The notes below the pieces were generated by a model, which did no database searches, was not told where the DNA came from, and worked only from the letters and a program-made list of their open reading frames with translations. A stretch of DNA of 64,000 bases, from assembly GCA_015233115.1 (NCBI GenBank), contig JADFYJ010000014.1, positions 11,028 through 75,027 of the forward strand. The letters are read 5' to 3'. Every line of letters begins with the position of its first letter. Position 1 is the first letter of the stretch. Source of the DNA: Candidatus Omnitrophota bacterium. Lineage in GTDB: Bacteria > Omnitrophota > Gorgyraeia > Zapsychrales > Zapsychraceae. Of the stretch, positions 1,959-58,675 are shown one piece after another. The translations under genes and the position numbers were made by a program.

Positions 1959-4900
1959 ATGTCAAAACCTAACCTTAATTTCCAATTCCCCGAAGTCCGC
2001 GTGGTCGAAGCTTCCGCCGGCTCAGGAAAAACCTATGCTTTGGCTAAGCGCTATGTCCAATTGCTATTGCTGCCTAAGAATAGTTCTATTCGGGAAATCC
2101 TTGCCTTAACTTTTACTAATAAAGCGGCGTTTGAGATGAAGCGTCGTATTTTATATTTTTTGCGATCTATGGCGTTGGGTGTGATGCCAGCGGAGGAGTT
2201 GAATCTTATGATCGCTCCGGTGGGTATATCGCCGGAAGCGGCCCGTCTGCGCTGTGCGGACATTATGGATGACATTATTCGTAATTATGATTTTTTTCAG
2301 GTTGAGACGATTGATACGTTTATTAACAGCATGCTGTCCGGATGCGCGTTTAAATTGGGGGTCAGCGCGAATTTTAAAATTAAAACTCAGGCGCGGGATT
2401 ATTTGGAATTAAGCCTGGATCAATTGATTGACAGCGCGTTTGTGCATTCGCCGACCATGGATTTGCTCAAAGATTTTCTGCACAGTTATTTGTATATTGA
2501 AAACCGCAGCGGCTGGTTTCCTAAAAAGGATATGCTCGCGATCATTAATGATTTGTTCAAGGAGATCAATTCCCGTCAGGGACAGTTTGTGACTTCTCCG
2601 TTAAAAAGTGAAGCTTTGGGGGAATTGCGCGGAATTATTCTGGATGAAATGAAATTGCTTAAGCAGGCTTTGCCGTCTGGAATCGATAAACGTTTTGTGG
2701 TGAAACTGGATAAATTTCTGACTGATCACAAAAAAGGTTTTGATATCGACAGTGTCCCGGACTGGTTCACGCATGAAGATATTCCAGTTAAAAAAGGATC
2801 GGATGTCAGCGATGACGCGGATATGCTTTGGAATTTGATCCGTCAAAATTTACTACAAATGTGCGTGGATGAGGCGACCTCATTGTTCAATCCGTATGTG
2901 CATATTTTTAACGCGGCCTGGTCGAGAATCAATGATCTGGCCCGGCAGGAAGATTTATTATTTTTAAGCGAATTAAACCGCAGAGCCTCACAAATGATTA
3001 AGGACGGAAATATCACCATAGAAGAATTGGCGTTTCGTTTGACCAGCCGTTACCGTCATTATTTGTTGGATGAATTCCAGGATACCAGCCGCTTGCAATG
3101 GTCGAATGTGCATGGCTTAGTGCATGACACTTTGGCGCAAGGCGGGTCTTTGTTTTATGTGGGGGATAAAAAGCAGGCCATTTACCGTTTCCGCGGCGGG
3201 GATGTGACGTTATTTGATGATGTAAAGGAAGATTTTAAGCCGTTTAATGTGCAGGAAGAGCAGTTAAGCCGGAACTGGCGCAGCCGGCAGAATATTATTG
3301 AATTTAATAACCGTATTTTTTCCATGGCGAATTTAAACGCGTTCATTGACCGTAAACAAAAATTTGAAAAAGAACAGCCTAATAAAAAAAATCCAGTTAT
3401 TCTTTCAGACAAAGACCGGCATTTTTTAGAAAAAGTTTTCGGCGGGTCAGCGCAGGACATAAAAGCGGACCGGACCGGCGGTTATGTCCGTTTTGAGCAT
3501 ATTGAAGGCAAAGGCAAACTGGAACGGGAAGATGTTTTAAAAGAACAATTTTTTAAAGTTATTGAAGACGTGCGGCAGAGGTTCGAGCTGGAAGATATTG
3601 CGGTGCTGACACGGACTAACGGGCAAGCAAAGTTGATCACGGATTGGCTTCTGGAAGCGGAAATACCGGTTCAGTCTGACGTAACTCTGGATGTCACTCA
3701 GAATATTGTGATCCGCGATTTAGTTGCTTTTTTGAAATTTTTAAATTCTCCAGTCGATAATTTATCATTTTGCGCGTTTATTTTAAGCGGCGTATTTTTA
3801 AAAGCCTCAGGTTTGTCGTTTGATACTGTTCAGGAGTTTTTATCGTCCTTACGCGACAAGCTGGGCCGTAAAAGTGAAGTCGTTATTTATACGGAATTCC
3901 GTAAAGCGTTTCCTGAGGCGTGGGCAGGATTAATCGACGAATTTTTTAAAAATGTGGGATTGTATCCGGTTTATGAATTAGTCGTCACGATATACCGGAA
4001 ATATGATTTGTTGAATCGTTTTCCTGAAGTACAAGGATTTTTGATGCATTTTCTGGAACTGATTAAAAAACAGGAAGAAGAATACTGTGACTTGGGGATG
4101 TTCCTGGAATATTTTGAGGAAGTAGCTGGCGAGGACGTGTATGTCCATATCAGCAGTGGTAACGCGGTTAAAGTGTTGACTGTCCACAAATCCAAGGGGC
4201 TGGAATTTCCGGTTGTGATATTGCCGTTTTTAAGCATGGATGTGCAGGTGGGAGCGGGCAGCGCGGATAATAAGTTGTCGTATGTAGTGCAGGAGGCGGG
4301 CGATGCTTTGCAATTATTGCGTTTAAAAAGCAAATATTACGGCTATTCCGACGATCTTTACAATATTTACGCTCAGGAATATAAAAAAGAATTTTTGTCT
4401 GAACTCAACAGTATTTATGTGGCCTTGACCCGTGCTTCGGAAGAAATGTACGGGTTTATTCCTGCTAAAGTGGGCAACTCCCATAATTTGGCCAAGTTTC
4501 TTTTTGCTGATGATGGGCTGGAATTGGGAACAGTGACGGGACAAAAAATTATTACCAAGAAAAAAGCTGAAGAAGTTGTTATGCTGGAATCCCTGCCGGC
4601 ACAGGACTGGATCGCTTATCTGACGGATGAATTTGTGGCGATTGAAGAGATAAAGAACCGGAAAGAACGGGGGCGGGGTAAATTGATTCATGCGGTTTTG
4701 GCGCGGATTTCGGATTTGGGGCAGCAAAATTTTGATGAATTGGTTTCAGTTAAGGAAATAGATGCTGAGGAGCAGGATTGGAATGAGGCAGTCAATGTTG
4801 TGCGGGGATTGATAGAAGCTGGTAATTTTTCCAAATTTGTAAAGTTGGCTCCCGGCGAAACAGTCTTGAACGAACAGGAGATCGTTGATCATTATGGCCA

Positions 4901-5147: not shown

Positions 5148-5378
5148 TGTAGCACTGCTCGCGGGAGCTTCCAGCACTACGCGGACATTGCGTCCTTGGT
5201 CGGCTGTTCGCGGGAGCTCACGGCACTACTGCGGACATTGCGTCCTTGGTCGTAGGGGCGATCTCCTGATCGCCCGTACAATAAAGATTTAAAAATCTAT
5301 TATTCCGGGGTTTTGTTTTTGGTTTTGTATTGAAAAAACGAATATTTTGTAAGCGGGCGATCAGGAGATCGCCCCTAC
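5148..5378. repeat. Composite intergenic element: tandem about 45-nt units (GCGGGAGCTC..GGCACTAC.GCGGACATTGCGTCCTTGGTCG) plus inverted pair of REP palindromes
   Basis: Units at 5161-5203 and 5208-5252; REP copies 5252-5275 and 5355-5378 are exact reverse complements; the GGACattgcGTCC hairpin recurs. Confidence 0.75.
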
Positions 5379-8220: not shown

Positions 8221-10219
8221 TCCTAAATTGCGGTTCGTCTGTCAGATATTATTATTAGTTATTGTCGGTGTTTTAATCTATTCCAACAGTTTGCATTCAG
8301 ATTTTGTTTTTGACGATAAAATTTTTGTGGCGGGCAATCCTAATCTTCACAAGTTAACTGATTTTAAAGCGCTATGGCATTCTCAGCCAGGGTCATCACG
8401 CATTGTCGCTGTCATCAGTTTCGCGTTAAACTATCATTTCACAAAATTGAATGTGGTTGGATTTCATGCGACGAATTTGGTGTTCCATTTGATCAATGGT
8501 TTTCTCGTCTGGTGGCTCATTTGTCTGCTGTTTGAAACACCGGTATTAAAACGCCACCGGTTTTATGAATCTCGAAATGTTATCGCCTGGATCTGCGCGT
8601 TATTATTTGTTGTACATCCGTTACAAACTCAGGCCGTCGCTTATATTACACAAAGATTCGCGTCATTGGCTACTTTATTTTATGTGTTAGGTATGTGCTG
8701 GTATTTAGTGGGCCGCTTGAGCGGTCGAAAACGGTTTTATGTATTGGCGTGTGGCAGTACTGCTTTGAGCATGCTGACTAAAGAAATGGCCATGACTTTT
8801 CCTTTAATGGTCATCATGACGGAATGGGTGCTTTTTGAACATCAGCGGGTAGAATGGCGTAAAATGCTTTTTGGGGGCGCTGCATTATTAGGATTAGGGA
8901 TGATTGTTCCTGCGGTGATGAGGTTTAATATTTTTGCGGCTTTGTTTGACCCCAAGCCAGGGAATTCACATCTTTGGGATACGGTGATGTTTGAACCCTT
9001 TGTGATGACGCAGCTAAAAGTATGGGTAGTATTATTGGCAAAATTATTTGTTCCGATACACCAGAATTTGGATTATGATTTTCCATTAGTTAATAATTTT
9101 TGGCAAATGGATATTTGGGGCAGCGCCGTTATATTGATAGCGCTGCTCGTTTTCGCGGTGAAATACCGGCAGAAAAGCCCTTTAGTCAGTTATGGAATTT
9201 TTTGGTTTTTTGTGGCGATGAGTGTTGAGATGATCCCGCGTATGTATGTGATTTTCGAACATAAAATGTATCTGCCCATGGCAGGCTTAAGTATGGCCCT
9301 TGTCGGATTAAGCTGGGAATGGATTAAAAATAATAAAGCGCGTGGGATAGTTCTGGCTGGGGTTATTATTTTGTTTGGCGTTTTAAGCTATCATCGGAAT
9401 TTTGTCTGGAAAGATGAAGTGTCCTTATGGGGTGATGTGGTCAAACATTCTCCTAACAAGCCAACAGCGAATTACAATTTAGGGTGCGCGTATCAGGAAA
9501 AGGGCATGTTGGATAAGGCCTTATATTATTTTAATAGAACCGCAGCTCTTTCACGGTATGAATACAGCGCGCTGGTTAACCGGTCTATGGTGAGAGAACA
9601 ATTGGGCGATTCAGACGGCGCATTGGATGATTTGAACCGGGTACTCTTGATGAAAAATGATCAATTTGAGGCCTACAATAACCGGGGCACACTTTACGGG
9701 AAGCGTCAGGAATATGGCAAGGCGGTCATGGATTTGAGCAAGGCGTTATACCTTCGTCCTGAGTCCGCGGAAACGTATTATAACCGGGGGTCAGCTTTTC
9801 AAGTTTTGAATAAACTTCCTGAAGCGTTAAATGATTTTACGAAATCCATTCAGTTGAAACCGGATTATTCCCGGGCGTATATAAGCCGGGGGATTGTTAA
9901 TATGATGTTAGGCCGCGATGCTGAAGCTGGCCAAGATTTTACCACAGCCATAGAATTAGAGCCTTATTTTCCGAATTCGTACATGAACCGGGGGATTTTA
10001 GAAATGAAGCTGGGATATGCCAAACAGGCAGGCATGGATTTGAGCCGGGCGGTGGCCCTTAATCCCAATCTGGGAATGGCTCGGTATGATTTATTTCTTA
10101 TTTTTAAGTCTGTCGGTTTAAATGACAAAGCTGCTGAGCAGGCCAAGTATATTATCGAGCATAATCTTGACGTTGATGCGCGGTCAAAAGCAGAGATACA
10201 AAAATTTTTTATGAAGTAA
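8192..10219 (+). CDS. TMTC/PMT-like polytopic membrane protein (DUF1736-type) with C-terminal TPR repeats, paralog 1
   Basis: N-terminal multi-TM region with FHATNLVFHLINGFLVWWL motif typical of TMTC-like GT-C proteins; C-terminal repeated A..Y.NRG.. TPR-like units. Confidence 0.55.
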   Translation: MWSLKKMWNNPKLRFVCQILLLVIVGVLIYSNSLHSDFVFDDKIFVAGNPNLHKLTDFKALWHSQPGSSRIVAVISFALNYHFTKLNVVGFHATNLVFHLINGFLVWWLICLLFETPVLKRHRFYESRNVIAWICALLFVVHPLQTQAVAYITQRFASLATLFYVLGMCWYLVGRLSGRKRFYVLACGSTALSMLTKEMAMTFPLMVIMTEWVLFEHQRVEWRKMLFGGAALLGLGMIVPAVMRFNIFAALFDPKPGNSHLWDTVMFEPFVMTQLKVWVVLLAKLFVPIHQNLDYDFPLVNNFWQMDIWGSAVILIALLVFAVKYRQKSPLVSYGIFWFFVAMSVEMIPRMYVIFEHKMYLPMAGLSMALVGLSWEWIKNNKARGIVLAGVIILFGVLSYHRNFVWKDEVSLWGDVVKHSPNKPTANYNLGCAYQEKGMLDKALYYFNRTAALSRYEYSALVNRSMVREQLGDSDGALDDLNRVLLMKNDQFEAYNNRGTLYGKRQEYGKAVMDLSKALYLRPESAETYYNRGSAFQVLNKLPEALNDFTKSIQLKPDYSRAYISRGIVNMMLGRDAEAGQDFTTAIELEPYFPNSYMNRGILEMKLGYAKQAGMDLSRAVALNPNLGMARYDLFLIFKSVGLNDKAAEQAKYIIEHNLDVDARSKAEIQKFFMK

Positions 10220-10220
10220 C

Positions 10221-10262
10221 ACCGCGCCGGAGGACCTACGATCCACCGACGCGGTGTTCCAT
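10221..10262. terminator. GC-rich hairpin downstream of TMTC-like paralog 1
   Basis: caccgcgccgg...ccaccgacgcggtgttcc imperfect inverted repeat sharing a core with 14069-14100 and 58616-58675. Confidence 0.45.
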
Positions 10263-10281
10263 GGGTTTATAGGGATTGATC

Positions 10282-14080: not shown

Positions 14081-14100
14081 GCCTCCGACGCGGTGTTCCT
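14069..14100. terminator. GC-rich hairpin downstream of TMTC-like paralog 3
   Basis: ctccgcgtcggtgg ttagg cctccgacgcggtgttcc. Confidence 0.5.
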
Positions 14101-14163
14101 GGGTTGTTGTTGACTGCCCATACGTTTTGTGCTAGTTTATACGACAATGATTTTGGGTTTTAC

Positions 14164-14266
14164 GGTTGATAGTTGATGGTTTTTGGTTTTTGGAAAAAGC
14201 GAATAATTTCGATAACCAACAACCAGCAACCAGCAACCAACAACCAACAACCCATAACCATCAACA
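14164..14266. repeat. Inverted TGGTTTT/GTTGATG and CAACCA arrays flanking an AAAAAGCGAATAAT box upstream of yggS
   Basis: ggttgatagttgatggtttttggtttttgg ... aaaaagcgaataatttcg ... ataaccaacaaccagcaaccagcaaccaacaaccaacaacccataaccatcaac. Confidence 0.7.
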
Positions 14267-15894: not shown

Positions 15895-16755
15895 ATGGCA
15901 AAAATCGGCATTATCGGCGGCAGTGGGTTATATCAGATTGAAGGCATTTCACAAGTCAAAGAAATTTCCGATGTTAACACCCCCTTTGGTAAAGCGTCGG
16001 ATTCTTTGTTCGCGGGAAAATTGGATGGGACGGATGTGGTTTTTTTGTCACGCCACGGCCGCGGGCATCGTATTTCTCCGTCGGAAATAAATTATCGTGC
16101 GAATATTTTTATGATGAAAAAGCTGGGAGTGGACGCGATTATTTCCGTATCCGCTTGCGGTAGTTTACGCGAAGAAATGAAGCCGTTGGATTTTGTGGTG
16201 CCAGACCAATTTGTGGATCGCACGCATCAGGCGCGGAAAATGACTTTTTTTGAGAATGGAATTGTCGCGCATGTTTCTTTGGCAGATCCGGTCAGTCCTG
16301 AATTAACTAAAATACTCATTGAAAGCTGCCGTTCTTTAGGACTAAATGTTCATCCCAAGGGAACGTATCTGAACATGGAAGGCCCGCAATTTTCGACCAA
16401 AGCGGAATCAAATTTATATCGTACCTGGGGCATGGATATTATCGGCATGACCACCATGTCAGAAGCCCGTTTAGCGAGAGAAGCAGAAATTTCTTACGCG
16501 ACTTTAGCCGCGGTGACGGATTATGACTGCTGGCATCCAGGCCATGATGCGGTGACTGTGGATATGATTATTGGTTATTTGATGAAAAACGCGGAAAACG
16601 CGAAGAGAATTTTGAAAACGGCGATTCCAAAGATTGGGCAGTTAAATAGTTTCAGCGCCCAAGACGCGCTAAAATTCGCCCTGATCACAGACAAAAAAGT
16701 CATACCGGAACAAATTAAAAAAGATTTGAATATATTGATTGAAAAATATATTTAG
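15895..16755 (+). CDS. mtnP: 5'-methylthioadenosine/purine nucleoside phosphorylase
   Basis: MAKIGIIGGSGLY...VVFLSRHGRGHRISPSEINYRANI...DAIISVSACGSL; ATG at 15895 with GGGAG RBS. Confidence 0.75.
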   Translation: MAKIGIIGGSGLYQIEGISQVKEISDVNTPFGKASDSLFAGKLDGTDVVFLSRHGRGHRISPSEINYRANIFMMKKLGVDAIISVSACGSLREEMKPLDFVVPDQFVDRTHQARKMTFFENGIVAHVSLADPVSPELTKILIESCRSLGLNVHPKGTYLNMEGPQFSTKAESNLYRTWGMDIIGMTTMSEARLAREAEISYATLAAVTDYDCWHPGHDAVTVDMIIGYLMKNAENAKRILKTAIPKIGQLNSFSAQDALKFALITDKKVIPEQIKKDLNILIEKYI

Positions 16756-16950
16756 TATGTAGTATGTGGTATGTGGTGAAAAAAAGCGATTGATGAACAG
16801 ACGTAATGGATTACAAAATAGATGCATGCCCGCGAAAGCGGGAATTTAAAAGAAAAAAATCTTTTGTTTTTTAACATTTCATTTTTCATATTTAACTTTT
16901 AACTTAATTTTTGTTTTTACTACATACGACATACTACGTACTACATACTA
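16755..16950. repeat. Intergenic island: (GTATGTN)x3 array, GAAAAAAAGCGATTGATGA box, AT-rich spacer, reverse-complement (NACATAC)x4 array
   Basis: Left arm gtatgtagtatgtggtatgtggtg 16755-16778; right arm ctacatacgacatactacgtactacatact 16920-16950. Confidence 0.8.
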
Positions 16951-20640: not shown

Positions 20641-20837
20641 GTATGTCGTATGTAGTATGTGGTATGTCGTGAAAAGCGATTGATGAGAAAATTAAAAAAA
20701 CGCTAAATTATAAAATCGAATAAGAAAATATTGTTATATCGTTTGAGAGGCGCGGTTACGATCTTTTCTAAATATTATTTATTTTTTCCGCGTTTTTTGT
20801 TTTTTTCTACATACTACATACCACATACGACATACCT
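20641..20837. repeat. Intergenic island of same family between lspA and rluD
   Basis: Left gtatgtcgtatgtagtatgtggtatgtcgtg 20641-20671 then gaaaagcgattgatga; right ctacatactacataccacatacgacatacc 20808-20837. Confidence 0.8.
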
Positions 20838-20856: not shown

Positions 20857-21759
20857 ATGTCCCCAATTTATAAAATTTCCGAAGACTCTGCCCAGAAACG
20901 TTTGGATGTTTTTCTGACCGAAATGTTGACGGAAATTCCTTCCCGGTCGCTTATCCAAAAATTAATAGATAACGGCCACGTCAAGGTTAATGAACATCTC
21001 ACTAAACCCGGGCACAAGCTTCGAGAGGGTGATGATGTCTGGGTCGAAATACCTGATGATTTTTTTTCTGCCCGTTATGCTGCGCCGGAAAATCTGCCTT
21101 TGGATGTTTTTTATGAAGATGAAAGTTTTTTATTGATCAATAAAGCGTCTGGGATGACTGTTCATCCGGGAGCTAACTGCTCTGCCGGTACTGTGGTGAA
21201 TGCTTTATTGTTTAAAGAAATAGAACTTTCTGCGAGTGATGATGAAATGCGGCCGGGGATTGTGCACCGTTTGGATAAAGACACGTCAGGATTGCTTTTG
21301 GTTGCGAAAGACAATATCGCGCACGCGAAATTGGCTAAACAATTTGAACGGCACTCGATCCGCAAAAATTATATCGCTTTGGTTGAAGGGGAAGTGTCGT
21401 TTGATGAAGGAAAAATTGATCAGCCTTTAGGACCGCATCCGCGGGATCATGAGAAACGAGCTGTCCGGCAGGATGACAAGGGAAAAGATTCTGTGACGTA
21501 TTACAAAGTCATTAAACGGCATCAAGGCGTGAGTTTAGTGGCGTTGTACCCTCATACCGGACGCACTCACCAATTGCGTGTGCATATGGCGTATTTAAAA
21601 CATCCCATTTTAGGAGACGAAAAATACGGCCGCCGTAATACTTTTCCCCGTTTGGCCTTACATGCTATGTCCATCGGATTCCAGCATCCCCGCACCAACC
21701 GTTACGTAGAATTTTCCTCAGTCCCGCCCGTGGAGTTTCTTGAAAAGGTAGGACTGTAA
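20857..21759 (+). CDS. rluD: RluA/RluD-family 23S rRNA pseudouridine synthase with S4 domain
   Basis: Catalytic HRLDKDTSGLLLVAKD motif; N-terminal S4-like domain. Confidence 0.85.
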   Translation: MSPIYKISEDSAQKRLDVFLTEMLTEIPSRSLIQKLIDNGHVKVNEHLTKPGHKLREGDDVWVEIPDDFFSARYAAPENLPLDVFYEDESFLLINKASGMTVHPGANCSAGTVVNALLFKEIELSASDDEMRPGIVHRLDKDTSGLLLVAKDNIAHAKLAKQFERHSIRKNYIALVEGEVSFDEGKIDQPLGPHPRDHEKRAVRQDDKGKDSVTYYKVIKRHQGVSLVALYPHTGRTHQLRVHMAYLKHPILGDEKYGRRNTFPRLALHAMSIGFQHPRTNRYVEFSSVPPVEFLEKVGL

Positions 21760-21797
21760 AGAGTGACAAAGTAACCGAGTAACAGAGTACGCCGCAT

Positions 21798-21866
21798 GCA
21801 GGAGCTCTCGGCATTACTCGGACATTGCGTCCTTGGTCGTAGGGGCGATCTCCCGATCGCCCGTAA
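21798..21866. repeat. Second copy of the about 45-nt unit + REP palindrome downstream of rluD
   Basis: gcaggagctctcggcattactcggacattgcgtccttggtcgtaggggcgatctcccgatcgcccgtaac. Confidence 0.75.
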
Positions 21867-24293: not shown

Positions 24294-24364
24294 AAATCAG
24301 AATGGGGGTATTTGGACATTATTTATTCATTGGAAATCTCTCAAATATATGGTAAAGTTAAAGT

Positions 24365-24574
24365 ATGAATGAATTAATTTTTGAAATCACACAAGAAAAT
24401 GACGGCGGATTTGTGGCTGAATGTTTGACAGAATCAATTTTCACCCAAGCTGATACATGGGAGGAGTTGAGAAAACAGGTTATAGACGCCGTTCACGGAT
24501 ATTTTTTTGACCAACCTAAACCCGAAGTGATCCATTTGCATTTTGTCCGCGATGAGATTCTTGCTACAGCATGA
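24365..24574 (+). CDS. hicB: HicB-like antitoxin (UPF0150)
   Basis: 69 aa; overlaps start of a HicA-like gene; HicB N-domain-like sequence (GGFVAECLTESIFTQADTWEEL). Confidence 0.5.
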   Translation: MNELIFEITQENDGGFVAECLTESIFTQADTWEELRKQVIDAVHGYFFDQPKPEVIHLHFVRDEILATA

Positions 24575-24810
24575 AAATACCACGCAATTTAAATGGCCGC
24601 GCTTTAGCTCAATCACTTTGTCAGCATTGGAAATATCTTCAGGTGCATCAAACCGGCAGTCATATCATTTTGGATACAGAAGAACCGTTTCACCAGCGTA
24701 TAGCAATTCCTGCCCATGAAAGCCTACGGATAGGCACACTTAATCATATTTTAAAGTCTGTAGCGAATCATAAACGGATTAATCGTCAAGAAATCCTTGA
24801 CAAGTTGTAA
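24571..24810 (+). CDS. hicA: HicA/YcfA-like mRNA interferase toxin
   Basis: 79 aa; GSH...IPAHESLRIGTLNHILKSV matches the YcfA/HicA pattern (GSHh...P.H..l..GTL..ILK). Confidence 0.55.
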   Translation: MKIPRNLNGRALAQSLCQHWKYLQVHQTGSHIILDTEEPFHQRIAIPAHESLRIGTLNHILKSVANHKRINRQEILDKL

Positions 24811-24891
24811 TCTTACATATATTTTAAATCTTCCCAGTAAAGAAAGTCAGAGGCTATATTTAAAATAAATTTTACTTAAAATACACAATAG

Positions 24892-25899
<1,008 letters not shown>

Positions 25900-25932
25900 G
25901 TTTGAGGTTTAATAAAAAGGGGACGATAAAAA

Positions 25933-25990
25933 GGGGGACGGAGCCCTATTTCGAAATACGAAATAGGGCTCCGTCCCCCTTTTTTCTCCC
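25933..25990. terminator. Bidirectional rho-independent terminator between convergent gap and GT2 genes
   Basis: GGGGGACGGAGCCCTATTTCG / CGAAATAGGGCTCCGTCCCCC perfect hairpin flanked by A-run upstream and T-run downstream. Confidence 0.7.
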
Positions 25991-25998
25991 CCTTTTTT

Positions 25999-27633
25999 CT
26001 ATTTCCTACTCTTATCCGTCACCCAGAATTCCATATATTTGCCGAACATCAAGCGGGTCTGCGCGTCGAGGGCGGGGAGGGCGCTTAAGCCTACTAGGAC
26101 AAAAGGAATGGTTAGCCATTCCAGGATATGGCCTAGTTTTTTCTTCCAGGGTTTTTCCCCTTCCGGGTCCGGGAGCATCGCGATCGACAGGGCAGTCGAT
26201 ATAAATAAGGAAATGGTAGATAATTGAAATATGGTCTGCGCGATGTGCGGTTCGTTGTAATAAATGACTGAATGCGCAAAACGGTGCCCGGCAATGAGGG
26301 CAGGAAGCCAACTCATCGTTGTTAACAGAAATCCCCACGTGGCCCAGGACACATGATCTTCCAGCATTTTAAATCCATGACGGATTTTATTATAAAGAGA
26401 AATGTTGGGGCTTTGCATAAAACCTCGAATAAGAATGGGAAAATTTTCTGCTCCGTAAGCCCAGCGTCGTCTTTGTTTATAAATATTTTTCATGGTTTTA
26501 ACCCAGTCTTCCGCGACGGTCGCGTCCATGGACAGCGTGGCATAGATCGGCATGACCTGATATTTTCCTTCATAAAATAAATAAGCTTTCCAGAAAATAG
26601 CTGAGTCGTCGGATATCATATCTCTCGGCCAATATCCGATTTCAACTAAAGCTTTAAAACTCATACTATGACTTGAAAATGTGACCAGTTTTTCCGGGTT
26701 AGTGGATTCGATGAGCTGGAAAAACGAAGATCCGGTTTCCATAACGCGGGAAAAGGGCGGGACATTCCAAATATTATTGTGGTATACGGGAATAGGCTGA
26801 TAACTAGTATGGTCGCGATCCGGGCTGGTCATGAAAGAATAGGTCAGGGCGGAGAAATATTTTTTGTCGACGACCGTGTCCGCATCAAAACAAGAAACCA
26901 CGACCTGGCTAAAGTCGATTTTTTTCTTCTCTAAATATTGGGAACAATGTTCAGCCGCGTATGAAGCATTGGCGCCTTTAACCCGGGCTTCGCCCGGCAA
27001 TCCAGCCGGATGAAAAATAACCAGGAAATCCATGAAATGGGTTTTATATTCTTCTTGCAGTCTGAGCGCCGCTTCTTTTGTCGCTGAGGGGGCTCGTTCT
27101 TCAACGGCGAATACGATCAACATTTGATGAGTGGAAAATTCTTGCTCAGCTAAAGACACAATCCCTGGACGAATAATTTCTTCACCTTCTTTGGCGGCTG
27201 GGATGATGACCACATGGTAGATGTCAGATGATAAAGGCGGTAGGGATTTGCACTGCATTAATTTTTTTAAATTGTTTTTATGGATTCCGACAGAAATAAA
27301 ATCATTGAACGACGCGGATTCGAAAGCATTTTTAAAAGTCAGATGTTGATGCAGATCGTCAATTTCTTTAATGCGTTTAAGCCATTCGGTTTTACGTTCA
27401 ATATTAAAGCGCAAATAGGAGATCGTCAGTAGGATTGTTAAATAGATCAGCCGGATAAACCAAAAAAATATTAATGCGATCGCGATAATAGAAGCGCGTA
27501 AAGGATCGAAAATCGAGAGAAACAGGATTCCCAGGAGAATTGACCAACTGCATATTCCGGGTAGAATTTCCAAAAATCGTTGAAGCCGTTTTTCTTTTTC
27601 GCTTAAATTTGATTTAGAATAATTAAAAGACAT
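25999..27633 (-). CDS. Family-2 processive glycosyltransferase (cellulose/chitin/hyaluronan-synthase-like)
   Basis: QRRRWAYG (QxxRW) processivity motif; DADT (DxD); N- and C-terminal TM clusters. Confidence 0.65.
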   Translation of the reverse strand: MSFNYSKSNLSEKEKRLQRFLEILPGICSWSILLGILFLSIFDPLRASIIAIALIFFWFIRLIYLTILLTISYLRFNIERKTEWLKRIKEIDDLHQHLTFKNAFESASFNDFISVGIHKNNLKKLMQCKSLPPLSSDIYHVVIIPAAKEGEEIIRPGIVSLAEQEFSTHQMLIVFAVEERAPSATKEAALRLQEEYKTHFMDFLVIFHPAGLPGEARVKGANASYAAEHCSQYLEKKKIDFSQVVVSCFDADTVVDKKYFSALTYSFMTSPDRDHTSYQPIPVYHNNIWNVPPFSRVMETGSSFFQLIESTNPEKLVTFSSHSMSFKALVEIGYWPRDMISDDSAIFWKAYLFYEGKYQVMPIYATLSMDATVAEDWVKTMKNIYKQRRRWAYGAENFPILIRGFMQSPNISLYNKIRHGFKMLEDHVSWATWGFLLTTMSWLPALIAGHRFAHSVIYYNEPHIAQTIFQLSTISLFISTALSIAMLPDPEGEKPWKKKLGHILEWLTIPFVLVGLSALPALDAQTRLMFGKYMEFWVTDKSRK

Positions 27634-27698
27634 GTTGGTTGATGGTTTTTGGTTGTTGGTTTTTGGTTGTCATCCCCGAGTGCTTCAATCGGGGATCC
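27634..27698 (-). promoter_or_regulatory. Conserved leader element (hairpin + CA-rich CAACCA array) immediately upstream of GT2 gene start
   Basis: Transcribed-strand sequence GGATCCCCGATTGAAGCACTCGGGGATGACAACCAAAAACCAACAACCAAAAACCATCAACCAAC then ATG; about 90% identical copy at 29241-29290. Confidence 0.6.
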
Positions 27699-27772
27699 AG
27701 TAATAAAATTTTTCGTTTTTTTAACAGCCAATCGTTTTTTGTTTGACCGATCACCTTTCACCTATCACTTTT

Positions 27773-29218: not shown

Positions 29219-29240
29219 GAAATAATAAAATTGTCAGTTT

Positions 29241-29290
29241 TTGGTTGATGGTTTTTGGTTGTCATCCCCGAGTGCTTAAATAGGGGATCC
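29241..29290 (-). promoter_or_regulatory. Second copy of the hairpin + CA-rich leader element upstream of the PEGA-protein gene
   Basis: ttggttgatggtttttggttgtcatccccgagtgcttaaataggggatcc on plus strand; no SD-like sequence before either ATG. Confidence 0.6.
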
Positions 29291-29430
29291 CAAAATAACA
29301 TAGTTAATTTATCTATCCTTACCTTTTTATTATAAATGAAATCTGAGGCTTGCGCAACTTTAGTATATATTTCTTAATGTTCTGTAGGACCCCGGCATAG
29401 CCTCGGCCGATTTTTGCGTCTAAAAATCGT

Positions 29431-33679: not shown

Positions 33680-33838
33680 GCGGTATGTCGTATGTGGTAT
33701 GTAGTATGGGGCGAAGAATTTAAAATAATAAAAAAATTGAAAAATGATTTTAAAAACATAATGGGCAAAAGCAAAAAATGTAACAGAAACGCGAAGCGTT
33801 CCAACAATGACATACGACATACTACGCACTACATACTC
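33680..33838. repeat. Intergenic island of same family between mrdA and rodA
   Basis: Left gcggtatgtcgtatgtggtatgtagtatgg 33680-33709; right gacatacgacatactacgcactacatactc 33809-33838. Confidence 0.8.
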
Positions 33839-37480: not shown

Positions 37481-39259
37481 ATGGCCTTCCTAAAGGACCG
37501 GATCAAAGAAATTTTGTTGAGGGATAAACATCTCTCTGCCTCTGATCTTGAAAAAGCGCTGGGTGAACAACAGCGTAAAGGCGGGGAATTAAGCCGGATT
37601 CTTATTGATATGAAATTGATTGATGAAGATACGTTGACGAGCGTATTGAGTCAAAGCCTAGGTATTCCTGTCATTAGTATTACCCGCATTAAAATAGACC
37701 CTCAAGTGATTAAATTTATAGCTCGCGATGTTGCCTTGAAATATCAAATTATGCCCGTTTCTTTAATTGGCCAGACTTTAACTTTGGCTATGGCTGATCC
37801 GTTGAACATTTTTGTTATTGATAATGTCAAGGCGGTAACCGGGTATACGATTAATCCCATTATCGGGCGCAAAGCGGAAATCGCGGGCGCGATTGAACAA
37901 TATTACAAAAAAACGGAAGCGCCTAAAGAAGAAGCTTCAGAAGAATCTCGTGAAGAGTCTTTGGATAAAATTAGTGATTTAATGGGAGATATGGCGAATG
38001 CGGAAGAGCTTGATGAGATTAAGTCGGATGAATTTATCGGGTCTTCGTCGGGTGTGGAAGAGATTAAAGATGAGGCGCCGATTATCCGTCTGACGGATTC
38101 GATCGTCCGGCAATCGGTTCTTATGAAATCCAGCGACGTTTTTATTGAACCTTTAGAAAAAGAAATGCGGGTGAGGCTGAGAGTTGACGGGGTTATCCGG
38201 GAGATTGACCGTCTACCCAAAGCGATTTTGGCGCCATTGGTATCGCGCATTAAAGTTATTTCAAATCTGGATATTTCCGAACACCGGCTCCCTCAAGATG
38301 GACGCTTTAAGATGATCGTGTCCGCGGATAAAGAAGTTGATTTCCGGGTGAATGTTTTACCGACCGCGTTAGGGGAAAAGGTGTGTTTACGCGTGCTGGA
38401 CCAGACGGGTACGGTTTTGGATGTGGAAAAACTAGGGTTTGAGGCCAGTTCTTTACGGCGGTTAAAAGAATGCGCGCTTAAACCGCATGGCATGATTTTG
38501 ACTTGCGGCCCTACGGGTAGTGGAAAAACCACCACGTTGTATTCGATTCTCAAACACGTCGACTCTCCGGAAAAAAATATTGTGACGGTGGAAGATCCGG
38601 TCGAATACCAGTTTAAGGGAGCGTGCCAGGTCAATGTCAAGCCCGCCATGGGACTGACGTTCGCGACGAGCTTGCGCTCAATTCTTCGGCAGGATCCGGA
38701 CATAATTATGATCGGAGAGATCCGTGACGCGGAAACTTTGGATATTGCCGTGAAAGCCGCTTTGACGGGACATTTGGTATTGAGTTCGCTGCATACCACT
38801 ACCGCTTCGGGTTCTGTGGTGCGGATGGTGAATATGGGGGTAGAACCGTTTTTAATTTGTTCTTCGGTTTTAGCGATTATTGCTCAGCGGCTTTTAAGAA
38901 AAGTCTGCCAGAATTGTAAAGAGCCCTATACTCCTCCGGAGGCGGTGATTGAAAAAGTGGGACTGCGGCAGGTGACCCAAGACAAAGAAATTATTTTATA
39001 CCGTGGAAAAGGCTGTGAGCAATGTTTTAAGAGCGGATATAAGGGCCGGGTGGGGATTACGGAGATTTTGGTTATGACGCCGGCGCTTAAAGAAGTGATT
39101 ATGGCCATGGCTGGTGAACCCAAAGTCAAAGAGGTTTCCCGCCGTGAAGGGATGATCACCATGCGGGAGGACGCGTTATTGAAAGCTTTGAAAGGGTTAA
39201 CGACGTTAGAAGAAGTTCTACGGATCACTGCGCCGGATGAGATATTGGAGAAAAAGTAA
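37481..39259 (+). CDS. pilB: Type IV pilus assembly ATPase PilB/GspE family
   Basis: Walker A GPTGSGKTTT; N-terminal MshEN/GspE-N-like repeats (RIKEILLRDKHLSASDLEKALGEQ); C-terminal CxxC...CxxC tetracysteine. Confidence 0.85.
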   Translation: MAFLKDRIKEILLRDKHLSASDLEKALGEQQRKGGELSRILIDMKLIDEDTLTSVLSQSLGIPVISITRIKIDPQVIKFIARDVALKYQIMPVSLIGQTLTLAMADPLNIFVIDNVKAVTGYTINPIIGRKAEIAGAIEQYYKKTEAPKEEASEESREESLDKISDLMGDMANAEELDEIKSDEFIGSSSGVEEIKDEAPIIRLTDSIVRQSVLMKSSDVFIEPLEKEMRVRLRVDGVIREIDRLPKAILAPLVSRIKVISNLDISEHRLPQDGRFKMIVSADKEVDFRVNVLPTALGEKVCLRVLDQTGTVLDVEKLGFEASSLRRLKECALKPHGMILTCGPTGSGKTTTLYSILKHVDSPEKNIVTVEDPVEYQFKGACQVNVKPAMGLTFATSLRSILRQDPDIIMIGEIRDAETLDIAVKAALTGHLVLSSLHTTTASGSVVRMVNMGVEPFLICSSVLAIIAQRLLRKVCQNCKEPYTPPEAVIEKVGLRQVTQDKEIILYRGKGCEQCFKSGYKGRVGITEILVMTPALKEVIMAMAGEPKVKEVSRREGMITMREDALLKALKGLTTLEEVLRITAPDEILEKK

Positions 39260-39465
39260 CCGAGTAACCGAGTAACAGAGTAACAAAGAGATAGCACAAA
39301 AGGCTAAACGCGATTGCTGAGAAAAGTTTTGTATTTTAAAAGCATCTATTTATTAAACATTTTTTATCAATTTTTGAGTATTAGTTTTTGTTTTTTATGC
39401 TTTTCGTTGTTTTACTCGGTTACTTTGTTACTCGGTTACTTTGTTACTCGGTTACTTTGTTACTA
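39256..39465. repeat. Intergenic island between the two pilB genes: (GTAACNRA) 8-mer array, AT-rich spacer, inverted (KGTTACTY)x7 array
   Basis: Left gtaaccgagtaaccgagtaacagagtaacaaagag 39256-39290; right gttgttttactcggttactttgttactcggttactttgttactcggttactttgttact 39405-39465. Confidence 0.8.
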
Positions 39466-41203: not shown

Positions 41204-41520
41204 AGAGTAACAAAGTAACCGAGTAACAGAGTAACCGAGTAAAAAAGTAACAACGGAAAGAATATAAAAAAATAAAAAACGAATGTGAAAAGAAAAGCAT
41301 TGGAAAAAAATATAAATTGTAAATTGCAAAGATTCGCTTTTTCTATTCAATATTGATGCTAAAATATCAAAGAATAGGATTTTGTTAAAATATAGAAGAA
41401 CATAAGGTTCGTGGCACAAGTAAGAAATTTTTATTATAAATAATATAATGCTTGCTTTGTGTTTTTAATTTTTTATTGTTTTATCATTGTTACTTTGTTA
41501 CTCGGTTACTCTGTTACTCT
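41204..41520. repeat. Intergenic island between pilB paralog and pilC, same GAGTAAC family
   Basis: Left agagtaacaaagtaaccgagtaacagagtaaccgagtaaaaaagtaacaacgg 41204-41252; right cattgttactttgttactcggttactctgttactct 41485-41520. Confidence 0.8.
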
Positions 41521-42739: not shown

Positions 42740-42845
42740 TCAATAGGTTATAGGTTATAGGAAAAATTTTTGTCATTCCCGCGCAAGCGGGAATCCAGAT
42801 TTTCGTTTTTCCTGTCGCCTATCGTATTATCAAAGGAGAATAGGC

Positions 42846-53024: not shown

Positions 53025-53075
53025 AAAAGACACAAGTCACATGTCACATGTCACATGTTACAAGTTACCTGTGAC
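53025..53075. repeat. GTCACAT heptamer tandem array between cheY and hybrid kinase
   Basis: gtcacatgtcacatgtcacatgttacaagttacctgtgacac. Confidence 0.7.
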
Positions 53076-54231
53076 ACAACAAAGGTTACATATTTTGCCT
53101 GCCATATTGATCGTTGATGATTCAGAAGTGGAATGCGCCCTTTTAAAAGGGATATTGCATAAATCGTTTTCTGCATACGAAGTGTTAATTGCCCATCATG
53201 GCCGGGAAGGCCTGGAGCTGTTGGCGCAGAGAGACGTTGATATTGTCTTGTCTGATATGATGATGCCGGTTATGAATGGCTGGGAGTTTTGTGAAATTAT
53301 AAAAAAAGATCCCCGAACCAAAGATGTTCCAGTCCTTTTATTTTCTTCTTTAGAGCAGGTCCAGGAAAAAGCCAAAGGTTTTGAAGCGGGCGCGGCCGAT
53401 TATATTGTCAAACCAATCGAATCCGGTGAAGTCATCGCACGCATTAAAGTCCATTTAGGGCTTAAACATTATCAGGATCAATTGAAAGACCTTAACCGAG
53501 AGTTAAAAGAAGCTCAAGACGCTCTGGTGCAAAGTGAAAAAATGTCAGCGGTCGGAACTTTGGCGGCAGGGATTTCTCATGAATTTAATAATGTTTTGGC
53601 GATGATGAAAGGTTATATCCAGTTATCCCAGCAAAAGAATAAACTAGACGACGTGAAACCTGCCCTTGCGGTCATGCTGGACTTGGTCGAACGGGGGCAA
53701 TTTTTAGTAAGATCTATGCTGGATTTTTCCAAAGGCGGGATGTCGGAAAACAAGCAAAAAATAGTTTTAGCACAGATAATCGATAAAGTCAGGGTGCTTA
53801 TGGAACCCATGTTTAAGGCGCAGGGTGTTCAGGTTGAGCTTCAGGGTAAATCCTCGTGTGAGTTGCAAGGTTATCCTAATCAATTGTCTCAAGCGATTAT
53901 TAATTTTGCCAAGAATGGGATTGAAGCCTGTGAAGGCCGTACGGAGAAAAAAATTACCATTGAATTCGGTAAATCTTTGTTCGATAGGGTGGAGTGCGCG
54001 TATATCCGGGTCATTGATACCGGCGCCGGAATCCCTGAATCAATTCGGAAATGTATTTTTGATCCTTTTGTGACCACCAAAGGTGTTATCGCCGGAGGCA
54101 ATCGTTCCACGGCTGGCACGGGGTTGGGTTTAACTGTTTCGTATAATATTATCAAAAAACACCACGGTGAAGTCAAAATCGAAAAGACCGGCTCTGCAGG
54201 AACGACGATGCTAGTTACTATACCTCTATAA
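53041..54231 (+). CDS. Hybrid receiver-histidine kinase (REC-HisKA-HATPase)
   Basis: N-terminal REC (ILIVDDSEVE...VLSDMMMPVMNG), H-box ISHEFNNVLAMM, G-boxes (IDTGAGI; GTGLGLTVS). Confidence 0.8.
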   Translation: MSHVTCYKLPVTQQRLHILPAILIVDDSEVECALLKGILHKSFSAYEVLIAHHGREGLELLAQRDVDIVLSDMMMPVMNGWEFCEIIKKDPRTKDVPVLLFSSLEQVQEKAKGFEAGAADYIVKPIESGEVIARIKVHLGLKHYQDQLKDLNRELKEAQDALVQSEKMSAVGTLAAGISHEFNNVLAMMKGYIQLSQQKNKLDDVKPALAVMLDLVERGQFLVRSMLDFSKGGMSENKQKIVLAQIIDKVRVLMEPMFKAQGVQVELQGKSSCELQGYPNQLSQAIINFAKNGIEACEGRTEKKITIEFGKSLFDRVECAYIRVIDTGAGIPESIRKCIFDPFVTTKGVIAGGNRSTAGTGLGLTVSYNIIKKHHGEVKIEKTGSAGTTMLVTIPL

Positions 54232-58611: not shown

Positions 58612-58615
58612 ACCG

Positions 58616-58675
58616 TTGGACCACCGCGTCGGTGGACCACTGGTCCACCGACGCGGTGGCCCAACGGTCTAAAGG
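58616..58675. terminator. GC-rich palindromic terminator between convergent kinase and prenyl-synthase genes
   Basis: CCGTTGGACCACCGCGTCGGTGGACCA / TGGTCCACCGACGCGGTGGCCCAACGG near-perfect 27-bp inverted repeat. Confidence 0.6.

Follow-up and report, generated by a model that had tools for sequence, protein, structure and literature searches.

The window analysed here is a stretch of 64,000 nucleotides (nt) of contig JADFYJ010000014.1 of Candidatus Omnitrophota, and its intergenic DNA contains a series of repeat-bounded islands; all coordinates are positions within the window. By Pfam, the genes flanking these islands encode a PNP_UDP_1 phosphorylase (mtnP-like), IleS, LspA, an RluD-type protein, PBP2, RodA, two T2SSE ATPases, and a T2SSF protein. 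When all the intergenic DNA was read, a common layout was observed at seven gene junctions: a G-rich tandem array of 7-8-nt units, an AT-rich spacer, and a complementary C-rich array. The original prediction had described this layout at five junctions; it was confirmed at all five, as well as at 14164-14266 and at a seventh site, 42743-42830.

The left arm began 0-8 nt past the upstream stop codon, except at 14164, where it began 84 nt past the stop, and the arrays at 16753 and 39255 overlapped or supplied the stop codon itself. The right arm ended 14-20 nt 5' of the next ATG in the five larger islands (Table 1). Spacers measured 100-234 nt in these five islands, with an A+T content of 72-78%; in the two small islands they were 17 and 43 nt long. 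All of the clear 7-8-mer arrays recorded as features lay within the intergenic fraction, which makes up about 7% of the window.

Four unit families were found: GTATGTN in three islands (16753, 20641, and 33683), GAGTAACN in two (39255 and 41204), GGTTGNT/ANCAACC in one (14164), and ATAGGNN in one (42743). Array periods determined with Tandem Repeats Finder were 7 and 8, with 3.3-7.4 copies, and according to repeat finders the two arms were 84-94% complementary across 25-37 nt. In two islands, complementarity continued past the arrays to include unique sequence, and it reached 58 nt in each (at 86% and 72%, respectively). Left arms were G-rich and C-poor and right arms C-rich and G-poor. Moreover, two GTATGTN islands had an inner motif pair in common, with GTGAAAAGCGATTGATGA 3' of the left arm and TTTTTTGTTTTT 5' of the right arm. 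The copy numbers of the two arms were unequal (for example, 3.8 versus 6.6 units at 39255/39412), and the variable seventh or eighth base of the unit was often mismatched between arms.

The RNA of the seven islands folded with a minimum free energy of -36 to -90 kcal/mol, far more stable than dinucleotide shuffles, with z between -3.6 and -9.6, compared with +0.3 to -3.0 in five intergenic regions elsewhere in the window. The long stems that had been predicted to bracket each spacer were therefore supported by the fold check, and the truly complementary arms would form stems of 22-36 bp in the + strand transcript. The + strand fold was more stable than the - strand fold in six of the seven islands, and the stems contained 26 G-U pairs versus one A-C mismatch. 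This bias is no more than suggestive of RNA-level selection, and it is inflated by the freedom of register of tandem repeats. The ribosome-binding region lay outside the stem. A search of the window with 4227 Rfam models gave no match at gathering score, no rRNA was present in the window, and six hairpin-bearing loci matched no Rfam family except tRNAs. The sigma-70 promoter scan of the islands yielded nothing above shuffle expectation, and no terminator-like site (a G+C-rich stem followed by a U-tract) was found on their + strand. Left arms were also considered as suppliers of stop codons in three frames, which is true of some units and fails for GTATGTG and GTATGTC.

Neighbouring islands sometimes had the same unit family, so that the blocks ileS-dksA-lspA and pilB2 were flanked by complementary arrays (16918-16950 with 20641-20670, and 39412-39465 with 41204-41253, respectively). 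These arrays could allow cross-gene RNA pairing or serve as substrates for DNA inversion or deletion, and the presence of one family in adjacent islands suggests that new islands emerge near old ones. Cross-gene pairing between an island's right arm and the left arm that follows it in the neighbouring island was possible for these two blocks only and failed for four others, which makes pairing within each island the better model.

Table 1. Arms, spacers, and other arrays of the window, with their repeat units and positions relative to neighbouring genes.
Feature	Position	Strand	Units and context
Island 14164, left arm	14164..14196	+	GGTTGAT/GGTTTTT heptamers; G 11, C 0; loop only 17 nt
Island 14164, right arm	14214..14266	+	AACCAAC x7.4; 10 nt 5' of likely true ATG 14277 (yggS-like gene)
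mtnP/ileS, left arm	16753..16777	+	GTATGTN x3.3; overlaps mtnP-like stop TAG; followed by GTGAAAAAAAGCGATTGATGA
mtnP/ileS, spacer	16778..16917	+	74% A+T; small inner hairpin CCCGCGAAAGCGGG at 16829-16842
mtnP/ileS, right arm	16918..16950	+	NACATAC x4.7; TTTTTGTTTTT just 5'; ends 17 nt before ileS ATG 16968
lspA/rluD, left arm	20641..20670	+	GTATGTN x4.3; 7 nt past lspA stop; followed by GTGAAAAGCGATTGATGA
lspA/rluD, right arm	20807..20836	+	NACATAC x4.1; ends 20 nt before rluD ATG 20857
mrdA/rodA, left arm	33683..33709	+	GTATGTN x3.7; 5 nt past mrdA stop
mrdA/rodA, right arm	33810..33838	+	NACATAC; ends 14 nt before rodA ATG 33853
pilB/pilB2, left arm	39255..39288	+	(G)AGTAACN octamers x3.8; stop TAA of first pilB-like gene inside first unit
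pilB/pilB2, right arm	39412..39465	+	NGTTACTC octamers x6.6, equal to a 16-mer x3.3 at 100% identity; ends 16 nt before ATG 39482
pilB2/pilC, left arm	41204..41253	+	GAGTAACN x6; 3 nt past second pilB-like stop; complementarity extends to 41278
pilB2/pilC, right arm	41488..41520	+	NGTTACTC x4.1; ends 16 nt before pilC ATG 41537
pilC/next gene, mini island	42743..42830	+	ATAGGTT x2.7, inner hairpin ATTCCCGCGCAAGCGGGAAT (42775-42794), then CCTGTCG CCTATCG
Unpaired left-arm-type array	21756..21789	+	GAGTGAC/GAGTAAC 3' of rluD stop; TTTTTTGTTTTTT further on; no right arm
Non-pairing junction of two minus-strand genes	27633..27772	-	GTGATAG-type array after stop, CAACCAA-type before start; z -1.4

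Insertion history and turnover of the arrays

The gene order yggS-proC-mtnP-ileS-dksA-lspA-(lgt)-rluD ... mreBCD-mrdA-rodA ... pilB-pilB2-pilC was retained in the nearest relative (GCA_015233195.1; IleS 82% and PilC 88% identical) and in four more distant relatives, and the islands were absent at the same junctions in every one of these genomes. The corresponding gaps in relatives were 4 nt for lspA/rluD, 2-3 nt for pilB/pilB2, 2-4 nt for pilC and the next gene, -1 to 3 nt for mrdA/rodA (81 nt in contig P0004, where the gap was known by its length only), and 1-87 nt for mtnP/ileS, where the closest relative had 293 nt of unrelated repeats. From this absence, and from the few bases that usually separate the genes, the islands are concluded to be insertions specific to the lineage, 100-340 nt long, at normally very narrow junctions, rather than conserved regulatory elements; the C- and N-termini of the flanking proteins were unaltered by them. 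Given these absences, the inter-cistronic signals of the original prediction are not conserved ones. Its reading of the matched arms as covariation is also not upheld in the phylogenetic sense, because paralogous copies with matching arms are equally explained by a common origin or by mutational homogenising.

The relatives held only miniature versions with other units, such as an AGACCAT hairpin (L131, 18972-19053) or two to four TATAGAG or TGATAAG units after stop codons (L133). In the closest relative (L008), a different element of about 120-190 nt was observed in inverted orientation at two junctions (3687-3790 and 9790-9910), together with CCCTCTCC...GGAGAGGG hairpins; related genomes thus fill the same junctions with different small repeats.

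As the Omnitrophota relatives lacked islands, compensatory changes were looked for at an orthologous junction in Gammaproteobacteria, between the gene of a major facilitator superfamily (MFS) transporter and a convergent 2OG-Fe(II) oxygenase gene, with a metagenome-assembled genome (L038) as the reference for protein identity. The reference had GTATGTN/NACATAC arms (hairpin z -5.2). Arms of other units were found in L136 (89% identity; GTAGATG/CATCTAC; z -3.9) and in L138 (80% identity; GTGATTA/AATCACC around a 200-nt insert; z -3.0). No hairpin was detected in L135 (89% identity; GTAACGC/GTGATGG, left arm only; z +0.9) or in L137, identical to L139 (80% identity; GTAACGC/GTGATGC versus AATCACC; z +0.5). 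The expected compensatory pattern was therefore only partly recovered: the unit family turned over and complementarity was often kept (L038, L136, and L138), whereas L135 and L137 had no hairpin. L137 and L138 encoded identical MFS transporter proteins and differed (3282-3600) by three extra GTGATTA units and an insert of about 200 nt between the arms. Turnover at such sites occurs at strain level, and the region is hypervariable.

Metagenome contigs were also scanned for three GTATGTN units, and arrays were found in contigs with G+C contents ranging from 22% to 67%. For 10 of the 82 arrays with enough flanking sequence, the inverted partner lay downstream (GTATGT... then ...ACATAC), and the opposite order was found once. 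The orientation rule is thus strong, with the G-rich arm first on either strand.

Four-helix-bundle cassettes and other known systems

In five metagenome loci, inverted arrays enclosed a small gene. The arm units were GTATGTN in L025, L096, and L099 and GTATGTA/GTGTGTA in L053; in L106, the complementary arms were of the AGTAAGAAG type, with a GTATGTA array just inside. The enclosed proteins of L025 and L096, the two tested, matched PF05635 (23S rRNA intervening-sequence protein) and TIGR02436 (four helix bundle protein), and that of L025 also weakly matched the Avd protein of diversity-generating retroelements. Contig L096 contained, besides one gene-bearing cassette, gene-less hairpins of other unit families, a mixture of families like that of the window.

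The flanks of 19 plasmid-borne four-helix-bundle genes, a sample chosen independently of repeats, were then read. Inverted heptamer arms surrounded the gene in 14 of the 19 copies. Ten had strong arms (17-21 of 21 positions complementary, above all shuffles), each with a unit of its own, from among GTAGGGA, GGGAAAA, GGACAGA, GGTTYAA, GGGTGTA, GGTGACA, GGAGATA, GGGAACA, and GGGAARA. Three others (L156-L158; unit GTCAGGA) were counted by eye from the sequence, their score in the flank test being at background because the right arm extends into the final part of the coding sequence, and one was borderline (L146; unit GGCAGAA; 16 of 21 complementary). Among the remaining copies, two had a right arm only, beside an insertion sequence, two had direct arrays, and one had no arrays. 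In every plasmid cassette with clear arms, the G-rich arm was the 5' one. The claim that the unit family differs between islands while the two arms of an island match therefore holds for the four families of the window and also outside it, at the junction of L038 versus L136 and in these 14 cassettes.

Several cassettes were observed within operons (nrdB/nrdA, cas6/cas4, and cmr2/cmr3), and one of the 19 genes (L142, Azospirillum lipoferum) was located within a gene for 23S rRNA (712 bits with the Rfam LSU model). The latter is a genuine intervening sequence, and its terminal repeats are tandem heptamers that pair across about 32 bp at -67.7 kcal/mol. Four-helix-bundle genes between cas6/cas4 and cmr2/cmr3 were seen in plasmids of Anabaena sp. 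90, Pseudanabaena galeata, and Picosynechococcus (L148, L149, and L151, respectively), with inverted heptamer arrays in L148 and L151 and direct arrays in L149. Published work has taken the occurrence of this gene at cas loci as a sign of functional association (PMC3936711, PMC10910872). The association of the family with CRISPR may partly reflect selfish insertion into cas operons, and caution is warranted, in that the genes between cas genes may be selfish inserts and not CRISPR accessories.

Records of tandem heptamers between bacterial genes go back to 1990, and no function is accepted for them; the four-helix-bundle or 23S rRNA intervening-sequence protein family, which is common too, also lacks an explanation. 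The original prediction had known of no described family with the architecture of the islands, but paired inverted arrays of hepta- or octanucleotides have been published for Geobacter metallireducens (PMC2700814) and Xanthomonas (PMC4692102). In G. metallireducens, Aklujkar et al. (2009) listed 24, 21, and 8 opposite-strand pairs of tandem octa- or heptanucleotide arrays at variable distance (units GTTGCTYN x4, TCTCCGTS[Y] x3, and MTYCTGA x5), three unit classes termed 'global regulator binding sites', with one pair between proB and proA and none in G. sulfurreducens (PMC2700814). These arrays resemble the islands in having several unit families per genome, mostly as opposite-strand pairs, in intergenic positions that include within-operon ones, and in being absent from a sister species. 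They differ in phylum and units, were interpreted without a test as sites bound by unknown global regulators, with IHF/HU proposed, and were reported without positions relative to stop and start codons and without a link to RNA stems or intervening sequences. In Xanthomonas, Rehm et al. (2015) found 70-75 convergent inverted GGGAATC pairs per genome, about 90% of them intergenic, at a mean of 28 nt from the end of the upstream gene and mostly transcribed, for which no function was found (PMC4692102). Here, too, the G-rich arm comes first, the pairs lie near the end of the upstream gene, and length and sequence differ between close species; however, there is a single G-quadruplex-prone family, and the study centred on quadruplex DNA. 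The window islands, with 3.3-7.4 copies of 7-8-nt units by Tandem Repeats Finder and a complementary array nearby (17-234 nt), intergenic and lineage-specific, belong with these paired arrays, among which they form an unusually dense case. The island architecture is therefore already described, without a name, an Rfam model, or a mechanism. What is new is the link of heptamer arms to four-helix-bundle cassettes and to a genuine 23S rRNA intervening sequence, together with the exchange of one unit family for another, arms still complementary, at the gammaproteobacterial junction; our literature search found no paper joining this gene family to heptamer arrays.

Intervening sequences of 23S rRNA are regarded as selfish and horizontally spread, and RNase III cuts them in mid-stem (PMC4990558). 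Like the islands, they are sporadic inserts in a transcribed unit, with a terminal stem of about 28-32 bp and an A+T-richer interior (Coxiella, PMC4990558; Leptospira, Salmonella, and Alphaproteobacteria as cited there). Unlike them, the window islands are gene-less and lie between protein cistrons, not in helix 25 or 45 of 23S rRNA, and cutting by RNase III is established for the rRNA cases only. With arms of the same kind in L142, these cases give the RNase III-type processing of the original prediction a concrete precedent. The cyanobacterial short tandemly repeated repetitive (STRR) and TAACTGA repeats, the latter described beside start codons in Beggiatoaceae, cyanobacteria, and Bacteroidetes (MacGregor 2015, PMC4679880), are also intergenic-only tandem heptamers, in many cases only a few nt away from a start codon, with a scattered phylogeny and no known function. 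In contrast to the islands, they are mainly direct arrays (169 direct sets and one inverted set in the 'Maribeggiatoa' genome), with one dominant unit per genome (PMC4679880). REP, BIME, and REPIN sequences and MITEs (miniature inverted-repeat transposable elements) of the Correia and ERIC types are intergenic, often intercistronic, form hairpins in mRNA, vary in abundance by lineage, and are thought to be selfish and tolerated by folding (PMC3733652, PMC3116915). They are, however, fixed palindromes of 20-40 bp or fixed inverted ends, in near-identical copies and with a dedicated transposase, whereas the islands consist of variable arrays with unrelated interiors. Correia hairpins are cut by RNase III.

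Origin of the islands

We consider the chances about even that the islands are gene-less, intervening-sequence-like cassettes bounded by inverted 7-8-nt arrays, inserted in operon junctions, with the insert probably either looped out or cleaved by RNase III. The observations behind this reading are the anatomy of the islands, their fold statistics, their absence in relatives, the architecture they have in common with four-helix-bundle cassettes and with an intervening sequence of rRNA, and the turnover of units at one orthologous junction. In such a model, a widespread class of cassettes, with a G-rich arm 5' and a complementary C-rich arm 3', would have entered tight operon junctions, precisely in the gap from stop to start codon, after the split from the nearest sequenced relative. 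In the operon transcript, assuming co-transcription, the arms would pair as a long imperfect stem from which the AT-rich spacer is looped out. By analogy with 23S rRNA intervening sequences, the stem would probably be cut by RNase III, or the insert would at least be folded away, and either outcome would make the insertion tolerable. Replication slippage would homogenise the units within an arm; unequal arm lengths and a perfect 16-mer repeated 3.3 times (39412-39465) suggest that it has operated. Template switching inside the hairpin, or an origin as one unit, would presumably keep the arms matched. The G-rich-first rule might reflect selection against an exposed C-rich, G-poor stretch onto which Rho could load. 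Templated addition of repeats at a break as the source of the arms, which would explain both this rule and the single unit in both arms, is pure speculation.

Several observations weigh against a cassette origin. Only about 12% of the metagenome GTATGTN arrays had an inverted partner, and the window itself contained about eight arrays without a matching one (21756, 29237, 31422, 47532, 53031, and 5309, plus the 27633/27751 pair). At the 27633/27751 junction, two non-complementary families face each other, which is a direct counter-example. The pairing of arrays thus stands for the seven islands and does not extend to many others. At the gammaproteobacterial site, two of the five distinct versions (L135; L137 = L139) had no good hairpin. 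The strand asymmetry of folding was modest in the window and absent in L038 and L136, and the perfect 16-mer points to recent slippage rather than to a maintained stem. Neither tblastn nor a profile search against six-frame translations detected a PF05635/TIGR02436 gene, or what is left of one, whether in the window or in some 140 kb from its relatives (the best hit, E = 0.65, fell outside the islands); with no such gene found there, the islands' link to intervening sequences is one of architecture. A derivation of the islands from a decayed four-helix-bundle gene was also considered and rejected, as no remnant was found inside them. Finally, the interiors of the islands and the tails of 14-20 nt before the ATG were not homologous between islands, and only the arms and short adjoining motifs could be aligned, so that a simple copy-and-paste of one element fits poorly.

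Among the alternatives, a neutral mutational by-product, in which slippage-grown repeats are turned into inverted pairs by quasi-palindrome template switching and the RNA hairpin is incidental, appears rather unlikely, although it keeps a real share of the probability. The perfect 16-mer, the unequal arms, the many unpaired arrays, the extreme turnover between the near-identical strains L137 and L138, and the absence of islands from relatives all agree with it, as does the over-representation of heptamer repeats in many bacteria with no function found (PMC4692102, PMC4679880). Slippage alone, however, would hardly build an insert of 180-340 nt from a spacer of 2-4 nt, nor does it account for complementarity reaching into non-repeat sequence, for the strong orientation rule (10 versus 1 in metagenomes and every clear plasmid cassette), or for arms specifically tied to one gene family and to an rRNA intervening sequence. 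Iterated DNA binding sites for a nucleoid or regulatory protein (IHF/HU, or a pentameric four-helix-bundle protein), with the paired arrays looping or marking DNA, seem improbable. This interpretation was published for the Geobacter arrays (PMC2700814), arrays adjoin four-helix-bundle genes, and related genes have related arm units (L145/L150; L156-L158; L143/L146/L153); the last point is equally expected from common descent of whole cassettes. At least 11 unrelated unit families, with complementarity as the constant, are hard to square with one sequence-specific binder, and the window has four families and yet no four-helix-bundle gene.

We give a similarly small probability to conventional MITEs. 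Terminal inverted repeats, an intergenic position, presence or absence between relatives, and neighbouring islands with a common unit family (16755 with 20641; 39256 with 41204) would be expected of them. The classic form was nonetheless rejected: the interiors are not homologous, the termini are repeat arrays of variable length rather than a fixed end sequence, and no recognisable or consistent target-site duplication was seen at the ends of the five islands inspected, whose A+T-rich flanks could hide short ones. In addition, no transposase, including any RAYT transposase gene, was seen within the window, and the REP-typical GTAG tag occurs in GTATGTN only where N = A and in no other family. 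Highly improbable, in our judgement, is selection of the islands as attenuators, terminators, or insulators that adjust how strongly adjacent cistrons are expressed relative to each other. Intercistronic REP hairpins in Escherichia coli do so, and the stable stems of the islands lie flush with the stop codon and near the ribosome-binding site. The islands are, however, conserved at no orthologous junction, they have neither U-tract terminators nor promoter matches above chance, and the ribosome-binding site is left outside the stem. Integron attC sites were ruled out on the grounds that the islands are flanked by core genes with conserved synteny in the family.

Retaining the cassette model, the window would represent an extreme and recent burst of the gene-less form in essential, normally overlapping operon junctions (mrdA/rodA and pilB/pilB2). 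Through the link to intervening sequences, a descriptive curiosity becomes a model open to testing, in which RNase III excision stems let insertions survive in transcription units. A broader proposal, which we regard as unlikely, is that inverted 7-8-nt arrays mark the ends of a single large class of mobile cassettes, so far unrecognised, which may or may not contain an Avd-like four-helix-bundle gene, invades transcribed DNA (23S rRNA genes, cas operons, nrd genes, and housekeeping operons), and is neutralised in the RNA by RNase III excision. If true, one cassette class would explain the STRR, Xanthomonas, and Geobacter heptamers, the scattered four-helix-bundle genes, including their CRISPR 'association', and the rRNA intervening sequences.

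Other repeats and features of the window

A second repeat family consisted of G+C-rich palindromes built on CCACCGCGTCGGTGGACC, located at 10220-10275, 14081-14105, and 58612-58668. The last of these, a 28-nt inverted repeat (96% complementary, 1-nt loop) between convergent genes, looks REP-like. A dispersed module, CTGCTCGCGGGAGCTCACAGCACTACGCGGACATTGCGTCCTTGGTCG with the hairpin GGGGCGATCTCCYGATCGCCC, was found at 83-114, 5155-5290, 5341-5378, and 21798-21865 (85-93% identity), with a tandem duplicate at 5155-5252. Small hairpins were also present in island loops or beside arrays: ATTCCCGCGCAAGCGGGAAT and CCCGCGAAAGCGGG at the positions given in Table 1, and GTCATCCCCGAG...GGGGATCC at 27669-27698 and 29261-29290. 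The ATTCCCGCGCAAGCGGGAAT hairpin matches the ATTCCC-N8-GGGAAT form of Neisseria dRS3 repeats, and island loops seem to collect other small repeats.

A module of about 79 nt (27645-27723 and 29237-29315; 84% identical), comprising a GGTTGNT array and the GGGGATCC hairpin, was located upstream of two minus-strand genes and may be a 5' leader or promoter module common to both. Between two convergent genes, a 40-nt inverted repeat (25914-25998; 85% complementary, 5-nt loop) flanked by an A-run and a T-run resembled a bidirectional terminator. The 607-nt gap at 24294-24900 contained two short frames, by eye a HicB-like antitoxin and a HicA-like toxin, with no counterpart at this position in the relatives examined. 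Finally, a CACATGT/CACAAGT array at 53031-53076, partly self-complementary through the palindrome ACATGT, overlapped the listed gene start at 53041, so that the true start is probably further downstream.

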